Numbered from the stretch's first letter, positions 10,813 through 13,891 are shown. The stretch is DNA of 22,360 nt from a virus (IMGVR_UViG_2737471845_000014:1-22360), one strand, 5' to 3'. Notes: generated from the sequence alone by a model not told the origin. Program-made: numbers and translations.

Positions 10813-11520
10813 GTGAACACCGCAATTTTTAACGATAAAGTATCCATGACCAGCCTTGAAATCGCAGAGCTGGTGGGTAAACGTCATGACAATGTGAAAC
10901 GCACTATTGAAACATTAGCCAAAGGTGGCGTTGTCCGGTCTCCTCAAATTGAGGTTTCCGAAAGAATCAATAACTTAGGTTTTAAAGTTCAATATGAGCA
11001 TTACCTGTTTGAAGGAGAGCAAGGTAAGCGCGACAGCATCATTGTCGTCGCACAGCTCTGTCCTGAATTCACTGCTCGCCTGGTAGATCGCTGGCGTGAA
11101 CTGGAAGAACAGATCCGTAAGCCAATGAGCGAAATCGAAATGGTTGCTGCGATGGCTCTTGAAGCCGTTCGCCAGCAGAAACGGATCACTCAGGTGGAAG
11201 AAAAAGTCAGCCACGTCGCCGAAACAGTTGAGCAAATCAAAAGAGGCACCATACGCGATGGTTATGCAGGATACCGTCAGCTGGTGGCGAAAACAGGTAT
11301 GTCAGATGCGAAATGCCGCAATCTGGTGAACGCATATCAGATCCCTACCGACACCCATGAATTTATGACGCCGGACGGATTATTGTCTCGTCGCGCGATT
11401 GTTGCAGTAGAACCCTTCATGTTTGCTTTTCATCGCATGATGAGTGAAGCAGAACCACGAGGTACTCGCTGGTATCACCCGAAAATGGGCCTGTTTCAGG
11501 CGCTGGGCTGGCAGGTGTAA
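10813..11520 (+). CDS. Rha-family phage regulatory protein
   Basis: 235-aa ORF, GTG start with AAGGAGG 6 nt upstream; N-terminal Rha-type motif (MTSLEIAELVGKRHDNVKRTIETL). Confidence 0.75.
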   Translation: MNTAIFNDKVSMTSLEIAELVGKRHDNVKRTIETLAKGGVVRSPQIEVSERINNLGFKVQYEHYLFEGEQGKRDSIIVVAQLCPEFTARLVDRWRELEEQIRKPMSEIEMVAAMALEAVRQQKRITQVEEKVSHVAETVEQIKRGTIRDGYAGYRQLVAKTGMSDAKCRNLVNAYQIPTDTHEFMTPDGLLSRRAIVAVEPFMFAFHRMMSEAEPRGTRWYHPKMGLFQALGWQV

Positions 11521-11734
11521 TTATGCTCACAGGTAACACATGCAAGTACTCAATCGCTGGTTCCGTGATGGCAGAGGGCGTCGCGTCCACGTTATACGCT
11601 GGGAGTCTGAAACACAGCGGGTCATTTACCTGCGTGATGGTTATTCGCATGAATGCTTCAGTCCGTTGTGGTTGTTTCGTCGTGATTTTGTGGAGTGTGA
11701 AGCGCCGCCAGAGTGACGGCGTAATGGTGGAAAC

Positions 11735-12043
11735 TTACACGAAGCGGATCTGGAGTTTTTTTCCTGTTGCGCGGGCAAATTTTTTCAGTGTGGAAAATGA
11801 TGGTCCACTGACACCTGACGCCAGATTACTTTCCATTCTGCTGATGACAGTTGCTTTGGTTCCCATACGCTCAGCGATCTCAGCCTGGGTTAAACCAGCT
11901 TCTTTACGTGCTGCCAGCATTTCATCAAGCAGCGCAAATTCGTCGGCGATGGCGTCGTATTCTGCTTTAAAAGCTGGATCCTTCATCCATTTATCAGCCA
12001 TTTCATCATGTGTAATGGTTGGCGGATTACGTTTACCAGTCAT
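11735..12043 (-). CDS. HigA-like antitoxin (XRE-family HTH)
   Basis: 102-aa ORF with HTH (LTQAEIAERMGTKATVISRMES) immediately downstream of, and overlapping by 11 nt, the RelE/ParE-like toxin gene; toxin-first order as in HigBA. Confidence 0.8.
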   Translation of the reverse strand: MTGKRNPPTITHDEMADKWMKDPAFKAEYDAIADEFALLDEMLAARKEAGLTQAEIAERMGTKATVISRMESNLASGVSGPSFSTLKKFARATGKKLQIRFV

Positions 12044-12362
12044 GCTTTACCTCCTTCATTCTGGTTTCAGCTTTTTGGCGTTCGGCTGGTGGGGTTTTCT
12101 GGGTCTTCTTGATGAAACTATGCAGCATGATGATGCGTTTTCCTGCCAGGGTGCAGTAAAAGACGCGTGCGATGCCATCACTACCTTTAATCCGAAGCTC
12201 GAAAAGCCCGTTACCGAAAGCACTGGTATGAGGTTCTCCGAGATTGCTGCCGTATACCTTCATGCGTTCAACAAGATGCTGGTATCGGGCGCGCATACTC
12301 AATGGAAGCTGGTCGACCTCCAGCCTGACCTCTTCACAGTAGTATTCGATAGTGTAGTTCAT
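12033..12362 (-). CDS. HigB-like toxin (RelE/ParE superfamily, phage Gp49-like)
   Basis: 109-aa ORF (MNYTIEYYCEEVRLEVDQLPLSMRARYQHLVERMKVYGSNLGEPHTSAFGNGLFELRIKG…) resembling RelE/ParE Gp49-type toxins; paired with the downstream HTH antitoxin. Confidence 0.8.
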   Translation of the reverse strand: MNYTIEYYCEEVRLEVDQLPLSMRARYQHLVERMKVYGSNLGEPHTSAFGNGLFELRIKGSDGIARVFYCTLAGKRIIMLHSFIKKTQKTPPAERQKAETRMKEVKHDW

Positions 12363-12368
12363 GAGTTA

Positions 12369-12392
12369 AAACATAACAAAATGGTTATGTTT
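12369..12392. promoter_or_regulatory. Perfect inverted repeat, candidate HigBA operator
   Basis: AAACATAAC-aaaatg-GTTATGTTT, a 9-bp perfect inverted repeat with 6-bp spacer, 7 nt upstream of the toxin start codon. Confidence 0.5.
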
Positions 12393-12402
12393 GCACAATA
12401 TA

Positions 12403-12431
12403 TTGATTCTGCAATTCCGGGACGTTACACT
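12403..12431 (+). promoter_or_regulatory. Candidate sigma70 promoter in the conserved block upstream of the second Rha gene
   Basis: TTGATT, 17-bp spacer, TACACT; an identical arrangement recurs at 13059-13087 upstream of the third Rha gene. Confidence 0.35.
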
Positions 12432-12681
12432 GTTCAGGCACCTTATAAAGCGGGTGCCGGGATTTGCACCCCGGAATTGCTCGAGGCGATATACGACGCG
12501 CCAGCGTCTTTTTTATCGTCCATGCTCGCGCACGCCAGAATTATGGTGGGCTGGGCAGGGGAGCCGAAAGGCTCGCCGGTTTCCTTGAGCGCCGGTAGTG
12601 CAAACCCTGTTCAGTCCGCCACCAGCGAGATTTGCACCTCCGGTGGTGGAAGTTTTTCACTGCTCAAGGAGGCTGCCATCA

Positions 12682-13043
12682 TGGCTACAGTCCCAACTTC
12701 CCAATACCTGAAAATCGAAGTCGTCAACGGCAAAGCTGTTATTTTCTCCCTGCATGTTGCCTGCCACTTTAAGCGCATGCACCAGAACATCGTCGACAAA
12801 ATCGAGTATCTGAACTGCTCACGCGAATTCTTCTCCCGTAATTTCATACCGGGTACTTACCACGTGTATGGCGATTCCCTGCGTGGTTATTACATCACCC
12901 TTGATGGTCTGATGATGCTTCAGCTTGGGTTAAGTCTGCGCACAATGCGGTACTACGAGAGCTGTATTGATGCATTCCATGAAGCTGAAACCGTCCAGGT
13001 ACATTCCGCTTTCCGTCGTCATCAACGGGAGGTGCACCTATGA
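12682..13043 (+). CDS. Rha-family phage regulatory protein, paralog 2
   Basis: ATG at 12682 with AGGAGG 8 nt upstream; Rha-type N-terminus (KAVIFSLHVACHFKRMHQNIVDKIEYL); the frame is open further upstream, so a longer N-terminal extension is possible. Confidence 0.6.
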
Positions 13044-13058
13044 TCCGCTACCTGAATA

Positions 13059-13087
13059 TTGATTCTGCACTTTTGGAACGTTACACT
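13059..13087 (+). promoter_or_regulatory. Candidate sigma70 promoter in the conserved block upstream of the third Rha gene
   Basis: TTGATT, 17-bp spacer, TACACT, the duplicate of the 12403-12431 element. Confidence 0.35.
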
Positions 13088-13350
13088 GTCTCTGCACCTT
13101 ATAAAGCGGGGGCCGGGCGTGGAAACCCGAAATTCAATATAGAGCACAACCGCGCTCATGCGGTTTTTTCGTGTCATGAGCATCGTTACGCCCAAATTAT
13201 GGTGGGGCGTGCAGGGCCAACTTCGGTTGGGCCGGGTTCTATGTTGACCGGTATTTCCACCCCTGTACGTCTCACCACCTATATGGTCGTGGAAAGCCTT
13301 GGTGGTGAGTTCATTGAATTCAACATAGGGGCTGTCACCATGACTACTCT

Positions 13351-13891
13351 CCCAACCCAATCTCACCCTGAAATCACGATTATCAATGGTCGTGTTGTCA
13401 CCACATCTCTTGCAGTTTCTAATTACTTTACTAAACGGCATGAGCGGGTTTTAGACAGAATTCGAAACCTCGAATGTTCCGCTGAATTTACTGAACACAA
13501 TTTTGTGTTAAGTGAATACACCGACGCATCAGGCCGCAAACTTCCCTGCTACCAAATCACCCGCGACGGTTTTGCGTTTCTTGCCATGGGCTTCACTGGC
13601 AAACGTGCAGCCAGGTTCAAAGAGGCATACATCAACGCCTTTAACCAGATGGAGAAGAATTTATCTGGTGCTGACGCGGTTGATATGTCAGCTGTTGCAC
13701 GAAACGCCAGAGGCGTATACCTGCATTTGCGTGAAATCCATCAAATCTGGACAAGCCAGCTTTATCCAATGCTTAAGGCCGTTGAATCTCCGCTGGCTAG
13801 CAAACTGTACGACCGTGTAGGAGATGCTGTTTTTGGCGCTGCACTTGTTGATTCCAGACTTAATGGTTCTGACAAGGAGGCGCACCCATGA
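13351..13891 (+). CDS. Rha-family phage regulatory protein, paralog 3
   Basis: ATG at 13351; Rha-type N-terminus (RVVTTSLAVSNYFTKRHERVLDRIRNLE…YQITRDGFAFLAMGFTGKRAARFKEAYINAFNQME); the supplied ORF extends in frame to an ATG at 13040 that overlaps the paralog-2 stop. Confidence 0.6.

Follow-up and report, generated by a model that had tools for sequence, protein, structure and literature searches.

Tandem isrK/C4-type RNA leaders with probably different base-pairing specificities precede two Rha-family genes of a lambdoid prophage

All positions refer to the window, i.e. the whole stretch of viral DNA that was analysed (IMGVR_UViG_2737471845_000014:1-22360; 22,360 nucleotides), and the features are listed in Table 1. 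Three genes carried Rha-type N-termini, as the earlier note had claimed: all exceeded the cut-off of Pfam PF09669 Phage_pRha (29.9 bits), with Rha2 borderline at 30.6 bits. Rha2 was related to Rha3 (36% identity, E 6e-23), and the similarity of Rha1 to Rha3 was marginal (E 0.001). The Rfam search gave no match, and no RNA cassette, upstream of Rha1. The stop codon of Rha2 overlapped the following ATG (ATGA) and that of Rha3 overlapped the ATG of a 77-aa DUF4222-like gene; by alignment, the junction at the end of Rha2 duplicated the Shine-Dalgarno sequence (SD) and start of this 77-aa gene (13888). Cargo proteins of 120-122 aa were also found in 13 unique related units, and those of 181-185 aa in more than 30 unique units.

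Table 1. Positions of the genes, promoters, RNAs and pairing sites in the window
Feature	Position	Strand	Evidence
Rha1	10813..11520	+	Pfam Phage_pRha 40.6 bits; own SD TAAGGAGG
Start (first in-frame ATG) of the long ORF 'Ash-Rha2' (12381-13043)	12381..12383	+	-194 from GCCGG
Unit 2 promoter, -35 TTGATT (12403-12408), 17 nt, -10 TACACT (12426-12431)	12403..12431	+	read from the sequence; position conserved in the alignment
Unit 2 isrK/seqA-like RNA	12438..12514	+	Rfam isrK 61.3 bits
Unit 2 a1 TTTGCAC, loop of hairpin 2 of the isrK part	12463-12469	+	
Unit 2 b1 TGCTCGAGG	12478-12486	+	
Unit 2 C4/CI-type antisense RNA	12539..12626	+	Rfam C4 82.8 bits
Unit 2 b2 loop UUUCCUUGAGCG in C4	12580-12591	+	
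Unit 2 a2 GUGCAAA in C4	12598-12604	+	
Unit 2 downstream target region (a' + b')	12631..12672	+	complementarity to b2, cis fold, covariation
Unit 2 a' TTTGCAC	12631-12637	+	
Unit 2 b' TGCTCAAGGAGG, contains the Rha2 Shine-Dalgarno	12661-12672	+	
Rha2 cargo gene, 120 aa, short Rha-domain protein	12681..13043	+	Pfam Phage_pRha 30.6 bits
Junction GGGAGGTGCACCTATGATCCGC: SD + ATG (13040) of the long 'Ash-Rha3' ORF	13027..13048	+	alignment
Unit 3 promoter, -35 TTGATT (13059-13064), 17 nt, -10 TACACT (13082-13087)	13059..13087	+	repeat + alignment
Unit 3 isrK/seqA-like RNA	13094..13170	+	Rfam isrK 57.7 bits
Unit 3 a1 GTGGAAA	13119-13125	+	
Unit 3 b1 TCAATATAGAG	13134-13144	+	
Unit 3 C4/CI-type antisense RNA	13195..13282	+	Rfam C4 82.4 bits
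Unit 3 b2 loop GUUCUAUGUUGA in C4	13236-13247	+	
Unit 3 a2 UUUCCAC in C4	13254-13260	+	
Unit 3 downstream target region (a' + b')	13289..13330	+	sequence match, covariation
Unit 3 a' GTGGAAA	13289-13295	+	
Unit 3 b' TCAACATAGGG, ends 9 nt before the Rha3 ATG	13320-13330	+	
Rha3 cargo gene, 183 aa, full Rha domain	13340..13891	+	Pfam Phage_pRha 105.5 bits
Second junction copy AAGGAGGCGCACCCATGATTCGC, end of unit 3	13874..13896	+	alignment

The conserved block that had been reported to recur before Rha2 and Rha3 (units 2 and 3) was recovered by the repeat search as a 79-nt repeat (12400-12478 / 13056-13134, 81% identity), together with a 29-nt repeat (12532-12560 / 13188-13216, 83% identity; includes AATTATGGTGGG); the two copies were spaced by 656 bp in both cases. 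Since the leaders, from transcription start to ATG, were only 56% identical, the description of a conserved block followed by diverged sequence with conserved islands was accurate. A likely sigma-70-like promoter sits in the block where a good -35/-10 pair had been seen, but TTGATT-17-TACACT agrees with the consensus at only 8 of 12 positions and fell below the threshold of the consensus scan, which did not call it. In both units the -10 hexamer ended 6 nt before position 1 of the isrK model, the predicted transcription starts being G12438 (unit 2) and G13094 (unit 3), and other lineages carried TTGAAA-17-TATAGT at the same position of the alignment.

The leaders are a pair of known regulatory RNAs, one isrK/seqA-like and one C4/CI-like, and not an anonymous UTR. 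Both units exceeded the Rfam gathering scores for isrK (RF01394, GA 50) and for C4 (RF01695, GA 45), and both C4 matches spanned model positions 1-87 of 87. The c4-a1b1 model (RF03163) scored 19 bits in unit 3 and gave no match in unit 2, which places neither unit in this narrower family. Intrinsic terminators were predicted within the isrK part of unit 2 (GACGCGCCAGCGTC followed by T6, 12495-12514) and of unit 3 (AACCGCGCTCATGCGGTT, stem 13148-13165, followed by T6), with C4 beginning about 25 nt further on. Both copies folded as C4, i.e. as a long closing stem bearing two hairpins, b2 being exposed in a 12-nt loop and a2 in an internal one. Each contained an AUG (12543-12545 in unit 2, 13199-13201 in unit 3); in the alignment the ATGG at the C4 5' end was invariant (95/95 units) and the 3' CACC(A) tail was conserved. 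The leader folds were unusually stable (z -4.3 and -4.1); b2 was paired with b' in cis in the minimum free energy (MFE) fold of unit 2, and the whole-leader MFE of unit 3 retained the C4 fold.

Covariation was assessed in a set of 95 related units. Of the 17 pairs in the long stem of C4, 8 had changed on both sides, and pairing in the stem stood at 99.8%; hairpin 1 of C4 was 99.4% paired (4/5 pairs changed on both sides). For the long-range helices the corresponding values were 97.5% (5/7) for a1-a2, 98.3% (7/8) for b1-b2, 89.5% (4/5) for a2-a' and 86.4% (9/12) for b2-b'. The a2/b2 elements were complementary to both a1/b1 and a'/b', and all four interactions covaried. Overall, pairing reached 91-95%, against 35-48% when partners were slid, and none of 500 shuffles attained the observed values. 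The best downstream match of the b2 loop lay just before the cargo ATG in 28 of 28 loop classes, and in 91% of units their own loop outscored all 27 other classes. The set held 13 a2 and 30 b2 alleles in 42 combinations. The SD and ATG at 12681 and 13340, which are conserved and predicted to be masked by C4, mark the putative regulated starts.

Both leaders were stop-free and in frame with Rha2 and Rha3, in agreement with the earlier note. The ATG at 12381 precedes the -35 hexamer of unit 2 by 20 nt and is therefore missing from transcripts of the cassette's own promoter; the ATG at 13040, which opens the long 'Ash-Rha3' ORF (13040-13891) in frame with Rha3, is also upstream of the unit-3 -35. 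The frame was free of stops and in phase with the cargo in 83/93 units, and 8 of 10 spacer length classes preserved it. The differences between the two leaders had been noted as apparently synonymous, a view contradicted by pN of 0.42 and pS of 0.45 (pN/pS about 0.94) and by counts of 42/40/39 at codon positions 1/2/3; the Rha domains, for comparison, gave 59/45/86 (pS 0.88, pN 0.42). Column entropy over 95 sequences (0.83/0.87/0.90 by codon position) revealed no codon periodicity. The idea of an N-terminal extension was right in that the leader frame is actively maintained, both open and in the phase of the cargo, as for P4 eta/kil and Gifsy-1 orf45, but no amino-acid-level constraint acts on the peptide; a plain 5' UTR, proposed as the other option, is incompatible with the Rfam isrK and C4 matches and with the structural and long-range covariation. 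Pfam PF10554 Phage_ASH (cut-off 26) matched both leader translations (51 and 31 bits) over a region coextensive with the isrK and C4 RNAs, and homologous long ORFs are annotated by PGAP as 'ash family protein' or as a 283-aa 'Rha family' protein. Purifying selection and third-position bias, the marks of a protein domain, were looked for in the leaders and not found. Because the frame is open and its amino-acid sequence is without selection, Pfam 'Ash' appears to be the translation of the isrK/C4 RNAs, and the PF10554 match is best read as an open frame conserved over RNA genes rather than as a protein domain.

When the two units were compared, pairing was better within than between them for b2-b' (own 12/12 and 11/12, cross 7/12), a1-a2 (own 7/7, cross 3/7) and b1-b2 (own 8/8, cross 3-4/8). 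As the units differ at every a and b site, their base-pairing specificities are probably orthogonal; this orthogonality is only predicted, since some RNAduplex cross energies for the whole regions were non-trivial (-12.9 kcal/mol for unit-3 C4 a2 against GGUGGAAG in the unit-2 leader). Other E. coli genomes carried the two units in swapped order or singly, and each unit was far closer to units elsewhere than to its tandem neighbour. The earlier note had the cassette duplicated as a unit: promoter, leader and Rha gene are indeed repeated, but the copies carry different alleles at all specificity sites, their leader identity is 56%, and order and copy number vary. The cargo genes of other cassettes encoded Rha, Bro-N, ORF6N (AnrP), a derepression protein and kil-like proteins. 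A convergently oriented toxin-antitoxin module separates unit 2 from the pR operon and could act as a block to read-through.

The immunity region of satellite phage P4, ordered PLE - seqA - timm - CI RNA/seqB - seqC - kil and nested in eta, shared element order and Rfam families with the present units (C4 and isrK at 74.9 and 60.8 bits), and the cassette promoter corresponds to PLE. In P4, too, the loop (seqB/b2) was complementary to one upstream and one downstream site, AGGAGGCTGCCATCATGGCTACA, which spans that downstream site and the start of the cargo, was nearly identical to its unit-2 counterpart, and the leader ORF was in frame with kil and matched Pfam Ash (59.7 bits). This ORF is the old 'cI protein' annotation, lying over the Rfam C4 match in the region of the CI RNA immunity determinant. 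The nested-gene feature of P4 is found here as a cargo start inside a longer in-frame ORF begun upstream of the promoter. The genetics of P4 and P1 make the C4/CI RNA the repressor. The present locus differs from P4 in its cargo (Rha-domain proteins of 120 and 183 aa instead of the 65-aa Kil), in an isrK-C4 spacer that is 84 nt shorter, in its host element (a lambdoid prophage whose cI repressor is a protein), in having two cassettes in tandem and in lacking an identified counterpart of a PLL-like upstream promoter. IsrK has been equated with seqA and C4 with CI (PMC3632133, PMC10111431), and seqA is required for P4 immunity (PMC3632133).

Phage P1 was compared by description: the Rfam C4 family is described as C4 antisense RNA, and the direct target in P1 differs, being the small icd ORF coupled to ant. 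The immI region of P1/P7 is ordered c4 antisense RNA - icd - ant, with sites a1 b1 / a2 b2 / a' b'. Recognition at two sites (a, b), with b' over the RBS, was reportedly described by Citron and Schuster in 1990, who are also said to have found that allele differences give heteroimmunity. To our knowledge, P1 has no Rha cargo and no in-frame fusion of leader and cargo. The c4 sRNA of P1/P7 regulates the antirepressor gene ant via complementary regions upstream of ant (PMC7313666).

The isrK-orf45(STnc1160)-anrP locus of the Salmonella prophage Gifsy-1 (Hershko-Shalev et al. 2016; PMC4825925) is likewise found in a lambdoid prophage and gave isrK, C4 and a1b1 matches (C4 69 bits, isrK 79.3 bits). 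It also shares the terminator with read-through, the frame of orf45 type that starts from the AUG at the C4 5' end, and a cargo of the antirepressor class. The promoter PisrK, to which the cassette promoter corresponds, was demonstrated by deletion, and IsrK termination and read-through, a processed STnc1160 of about 80 nt and the compensatory mutations G28A/C162U and G31A/C159U were reported in the same study (PMC4825925). STnc1160 coincided with the Rfam C4 placement in Gifsy-1 and, by our reading of the positions, the mutations map onto a1-a2. Furthermore, the study found that orf45 undergoes translation, with coupling to anrP and a requirement for the first AUG of orf45, and that IsrK supplied in trans activated anrP translation 139-fold (PMC4825925). 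In contrast to the present locus, Gifsy-1 has AnrP as its cargo, which is of the ORF6N type and not related to Rha3, orf45 ends in an ATGA overlapping the anrP start (+1 frame) instead of being fused in phase with the cargo, the locus lies downstream of Q and not in the interval from the cI/cro region to the replication genes, the b2 loop is shorter and there is a single copy.

On this basis, each unit is probably, and with good confidence, a P4/P1-type RNA immunity cassette before a Rha-family (antirepressor-class) gene. The locus is a clear new example of a phage RNA switch that is itself already known, in two tandem copies with predicted different base-pairing specificities. By analogy with P4, P1 and Gifsy-1, the cassette promoter would be active in the lysogen and the isrK terminator would stop most transcripts, while read-through transcripts would be processed, with RNase P generating the 5' end, to a stable C4 RNA of about 77-90 nt. 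C4 would pair with a'/b', so that Rha translation would be blocked and premature termination favoured, and the short isrK-like RNA would pair with a2/b2 and shift the C4 balance; the sign of its effect differs between the models, IsrK being activating in Gifsy-1 and seqA being needed for immunity in P4. Gifsy-1 toxicity persisted when STnc1160 was co-expressed with IsrK (PMC4825925), and repression by C4 is therefore a putative step in lambdoid cassettes. When transcription came from upstream (pR operon or preceding cassette), ribosomes on the long open frame would traverse the leader and disrupt C4 folding and pairing, and Rha would then be produced, fused to Ash, irrespective of C4. Expression is thus likely, on the P4 model, to be C4-repressed from the cassette promoter and C4-insensitive when translated from upstream. 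The step in which upstream translation overrides C4 rests on P4 eta/kil, for which Forti et al. reportedly found in 1999 that translation from the upstream promoter makes expression immunity-insensitive. Given their different a and b alleles, the two C4 RNAs should each act on their own cassette only, which would leave the prophage with two Rha switches that can be addressed independently.

The long ORFs (12381-13043 and 13040-13891) might instead be real genes, with Ash a genuine N-terminal domain fused to Rha and the RNA matches incidental. The Pfam matches, the PGAP annotations, the frame that is free of stops in 83/93 units, its preservation by indels and the published treatment of Rha/Ash as protein domains (PMC8951638) agree with this reading, which we nevertheless regard as very improbable: the near-equal pN and pS and the flat codon-position counts and entropy indicate no amino-acid constraint, the match is coextensive with two RNA families under massive compensatory covariation, the 'domain' contains a conserved promoter and an intrinsic terminator, it is followed by a conserved SD and ATG, of which the SD shows covariation with the C4 loop, and in P4 the Ash-matching ORF overlies the C4 match. 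The minimal form of the earlier note's reading is that promoter, 5' UTR and gene were simply and recently duplicated in tandem and that no dedicated regulatory RNA is involved. This would account for two repeat blocks at an identical 656-bp spacing and is scarcely credible, as leader identity is only 56%, the changes are compensatory and not random, and each unit is much closer to units of other genomes, which differ in the order and copy number of the units, than to its neighbour; Rfam matches above gathering score, together with the covariation, rule it out.

A dominant positive switch of the Gifsy-1 type, in which isrK-C4 pairing locks the read-through mRNA in cis, an isrK-like sRNA opens it in trans, translation starts at the C4 5' AUG in frame into Rha and C4 antisense action is secondary, seems unlikely, if well worth considering. 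It draws on the 139-fold activation, the translation of orf45 and its required first AUG (PMC4825925), on the invariant ATGG, whose AUG shares the reading phase of the cargo in 83/93 units, and on a1-a2 and b1-b2 being the best-paired long-range helices. However, covariation is equally systematic for b2-b' and a2-a', as is masking of the SD of the cargo, and both would be superfluous in a purely IsrK-activated model, the conservation of AUGG is ambiguous because it is also part of the C4 stem, and P4/P1 genetics assign repression to the C4/CI RNA (PMC3632133). It is also conceivable, at rather low probability, that the cassettes act mainly in trans and not on the resident Rha genes, as immunity or defence systems directed at phages, whether co-resident or incoming, and at P4-like satellites with matching a/b alleles. 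This possibility was raised for lambdoid prophages by Barquist et al. (PMC3632133), and the many a2 x b2 combinations resemble a diversifying 'addressing'; against it, the b2 alleles of the P4-type units in this sample, which have kil as cargo, are mostly not those of the lambdoid units, which have Rha, and every unit has its own cis targets, which are enough to explain the covariation.

Under the preferred reading of P4/P1-type cassettes, we tentatively propose, as a possibility about which we have more doubt than confidence, that lambdoid prophages stack orthogonal P4-type cassettes with a two-part (a x b) code to gate antirepressor-class effectors independently, the widely annotated 'Ash' domain being only a ribosome runway. 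If this is true, the Ash ORF would be selected for its openness and not for its peptide, and upstream transcription would override the antisense RNA.

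The leaders of Rha2 and Rha3, two of the three Rha-domain genes in the window, were identified with an Rfam scan at gathering thresholds: each matched an isrK RNA followed by a full-length C4 antisense RNA (see feature table), and an intrinsic terminator was called at the 3' end of both isrK matches. Each promoter, isrK-like RNA, C4 RNA and cargo gene are called a unit (unit 2 for Rha2, unit 3 for Rha3). The conserved 60-80-bp block consists of a putative promoter (TTGATT-17 nt-TACACT, ending 6 nt 5' of isrK model position 1) and the first two isrK hairpins, and the island AAATTATGGTGGG singled out in the earlier note is the 5' end of C4. 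The consensus promoter scan gave no call for this element (8 of 12 consensus positions match), and it is retained as a putative promoter on comparative grounds alone. An isrK RNA followed by C4 also precedes kil in phage P4 and anrP in Gifsy-1. Gifsy-1 shares only the RNA cassette with the window units: AnrP was considered as a Rha3 orthologue and rejected, having no similarity to it and being an ORF6N protein. The equivalence of isrK with P4 seqA and of C4 with the P4 CI RNA is already in the literature, as is the occurrence of such RNA systems in lambdoid prophages (PMC3632133; PMC10111431; PMC4825925).

Features of the window, with strand and supporting match or position
Feature	Coordinates	Strand	Evidence or remark
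222-aa repressor-like protein	8260-8928	-	Pfam, two HTH_3 matches
S24/LexA-type cI-like repressor (S24 peptidase)	9032-9763	-	domain match
248-aa ORF	10029-10775	+	between cro-like gene and Rha1
268-aa ORF	10041-10847	-	between cro-like gene and Rha1
Rha1	10813-11520	+	Pfam Phage_pRha
506-aa ORF	11523-13043	+	starts 3 nt past Rha1 stop; 2218-3933 in related sequence L001
DUF4222 gene	11540-11716	+
HTH antitoxin	11735-12043	-	domain match
Gp49/RelE-like toxin	12033-12362	-	domain match
Start codon (ATG) of long ORF, unit 2	12381	+	upstream of cassette promoter
isrK, unit 2	12438-12514	+	Rfam, 61.3 bits
C4 antisense RNA, unit 2	12539-12626	+	Rfam, full-length, 82.8 bits
Rha2	12681-13043	+
Junction GGAGGNGCACCNATGATYCGC	13027-13048	+	SD and overlapping ATGA start of next gene
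Start codon (ATG) of long ORF, unit 3	13040	+	upstream of cassette promoter
isrK, unit 3	13094-13170	+	Rfam, 57.7 bits
C4 antisense RNA, unit 3	13195-13282	+	Rfam, full-length, 82.4 bits
Rha3	13340-13891	+
Junction GGAGGNGCACCNATGATYCGC	13874-13896	+	SD and overlapping ATGA start of next gene
77-aa gene	13888-14121	+	after Rha3
308-aa ORF	14102-15028		downstream of 77-aa gene
IstB/DnaC-like ATPase, then DnaB-like helicase			downstream of 308-aa ORF
Four-tRNA gene cluster	19701-20007	+	late-regulatory part of prophage

The window corresponds to the early region of an E. coli-type lambdoid prophage, in which two repressor-like genes sit side by side on the minus strand. As the earlier note had described, there are three Rha genes, all above the Pfam Phage_pRha cut-off (Rha2 barely); Rha2 and Rha3 share 36% identity. 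The 248-aa and 268-aa ORFs overlap almost completely on opposite strands, and a Pfam search gave no match for either. Weak homology (27% identity, E 6e-06) links the DUF4222 gene to the 77-aa gene, which is translationally coupled to Rha3; a DUF4222-like small gene therefore follows each Rha region.

For the analysis of covariation, 120 viral-contig stretches were collected with a degenerate search pattern based on the second C4 hairpin, and these yielded approximately 95 non-identical units with 28-30 distinct 12-nt loops. For all loop classes, the loop (b2) was complementary to a site (b') located ~86-93 nt downstream, a few nt before the cargo ATG; in the window units the Shine-Dalgarno is contained in b'. 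In 91% of units, the unit's own loop outscored each of the other 27. Named helices were scored on the alignment of these units, where a1 and b1 are sites in the isrK part, a2 and b2 are C4 elements, and a' and b' precede the cargo ATG. Paired cells and pairs changed on both sides were, respectively, 99.8% and 8/17 for the C4 stem, 86.4% and 9/12 for b2-b', 89.5% and 4/5 for a2-a', 97.5% and 5/7 for a1-a2, and 98.3% and 7/8 for b1-b2. Across all helices, 91-95% of cells were paired, versus 35-48% with slid partners, and the observed pairing was reached in none of 500 shuffles. The pattern is the a1 b1 / a2 b2 / a' b' logic of P1, or seqA/seqB/seqC of P4. The c4-a1b1 Rfam model stayed below threshold in the window, and the a1 and b1 sites rest on covariation instead. 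For Gifsy-1, the compensatory mutants G28A/C162U and G31A/C159U have been published (PMC4825925), and by our reading of the positions they map to a1-a2.

The two units carry different alleles at both sites: TTTGCAC / GUGCAAA (unit 2) and GTGGAAA / UUUCCAC (unit 3) at the a site, and GCTCRAGG(A) / UUUCCUUGAGCG (unit 2) and TCAAYATAG / GUUCUAUGUUGA (unit 3) at the b site. Own and cross pairing were compared by position-specific pair counts at homologous positions. Own pairing was full or almost so and cross pairing close to background: 12/12 and 11/12 versus 7/12 for b2-b', 7/7 versus 3/7 for a1-a2, and 8/8 versus 3-4/8 for b1-b2. RNAduplex predictions of a2/b2 against whole target regions were dropped as an orthogonality test, being too noisy because GC-rich stem flanks pair promiscuously. 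Units 2 and 3 are predicted to be orthogonal.

The same leaders can be read as protein-coding. Their translations match Pfam Phage_ASH (PF10554, 'Ash') with 51 and 31 bits, and long ORFs over them are annotated by PGAP. In the Rha frame neither leader contains a stop, as the earlier note had observed, and their other two frames hold 1-6 stops. Of 93 unique units, 83 lacked stops and kept the phase of the cargo ATG; in 82 of these 83 the frame was open past the transcription start. The isrK-C4 spacer falls into ten length classes, eight of which (90/92 sequences) are equal modulo 3. On these comparisons the reading frame is clearly maintained. The peptide behaves differently. The earlier note had considered the leader differences apparently synonymous and proposed dN/dS as a check; between units 2 and 3 it was ~0.9 (pN 0.42, pS 0.45), which rejects that reading, with 42/40/39 differences by codon position, while the Rha domains gave pN 0.42 and pS 0.88 with 59/45/86, and column entropy across 95 sequences had no codon periodicity. 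The leader peptide is not conserved as a protein; the earlier suggestion of an N-terminal extension rather than a UTR holds for the open frame but not at the amino-acid level. The P4 ORF that matches Ash (59.7 bits; 8168-8584, minus strand, in sequence L123) was formerly annotated as 'cI gene product'; it lies on top of the Rfam C4 match and is in frame with kil.

The long ORFs start upstream of the cassette promoters and are therefore not translatable from the cassette's own transcripts. Forti et al. (1999) reportedly described P4 kil as immunity-controlled and nested in eta; eta is reportedly translated only from an upstream promoter, and this makes transcription insensitive to immunity. The long ORFs over the window units fit this arrangement. 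They are also in keeping with Gifsy-1: there the AUG at the C4 5' end is the start of orf45, which is translated and has its translation coupled to that of anrP, and in Shigella dysenteriae orf45 is fused to anrP (PMC4825925). We conclude that the leader is dual-use, encoding regulatory RNAs and giving ribosomes that come from upstream an open 'runway', and that 'Ash' is no protein domain in the usual sense; the Pfam family appears to be the translation of isrK and C4 RNA genes.

The Gp49/RelE-type toxin and HTH antitoxin (11735-12362, minus strand) form a convergent insertion between Rha1/DUF4222 and unit 2. This toxin-antitoxin module is rare among E. coli genomes (16 of 5426), lies in some cases in very different neighbourhoods, and is lacking in close relatives (e.g. 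L002). The 506-aa ORF runs antisense across the entire module and then enters Rha2 by way of the Ash frame. Over 11523-12400 this frame is free of stops, versus 17 and 14 in the other plus-strand frames, and synonymous resampling put the chance of the antisense frame staying open at ~2%. Maintenance of this frame for read-through translation was considered and set aside: in homologous modules from unrelated contexts it is likewise open, except for one edge stop, and an open antisense frame is probably a property of the module itself.

Among 5426 complete E. coli genomes, 1653 had a match to some part of the 3.5-kb region and 90 contained the tandem junction of units; related DNA occurs in many Stx phages. 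The repeated block noted earlier was recovered as direct repeats at 12400-12478 / 13056-13134 (81%) and 12532-12560 / 13188-13216 (83%), with the same 656-bp spacing; from transcription start to ATG the two leaders share 56% identity. The earlier note took this as duplication of the cassette as a unit. The units are in reversed order in E. coli A8, EC11 has a single unit, and many genomes combine another first unit with the second unit found here; because order, number and first-unit identity vary across genomes, units 2 and 3 are no fresh duplication. The earlier description was accurate, and its interpretation is supported in part only. The junction GGAGGNGCACCNATGATYCGC ends every cargo gene and provides a recombination site at which units could be stacked. 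Some contigs seem to hold extra stacked units whose C4 escapes the search pattern. In the 243-aa ORF of L028 (from position 3408), a truncated Rha N-terminus is followed in frame by another Ash-like leader and a gene resembling Rha2. Two matches in L015 lie 1312 bp apart, exactly 2 x 656 bp, which suggests three units.

In the sample, the genes carried by these cassettes encode Rha, Bro-N, ORF6N (AnrP), a P4-epsilon-like derepression protein and kil-like peptides, all of which are antirepressor or derepression-class effectors. In the best-supported model, each C4 RNA would keep the Rha gene of its unit switched off during lysogeny, and there would be two routes to turning it on: the short isrK-like RNA and translation driven from upstream. 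No new kind of system is revealed: the units are of a well-known kind, to which a tandem member with Rha cargo is added. Some value lies in the tandem pairing of units predicted to be orthogonal, in the combinatorial a/b alleles and in the finding that the Pfam Ash 'domain' is a translation of isrK plus C4, and the reading of a common prophage region is corrected. Papers and annotation pipelines have taken 'Ash' and 'Rha/Ash' for protein domains whose function is unknown, also in Stx phages (PMC8951638). The 'domain' is instead a P4/P1-type antisense-RNA switch lying under an open frame. In Stx prophages, toxin release is determined by the lysis-lysogeny decision. The units supply naturally occurring RNA-RNA recognition alleles that are apparently orthogonal, and a concrete, testable control mechanism is proposed for the Rha-type regulators that, in lambdoid and Stx prophages, neighbour the cI/replication region.
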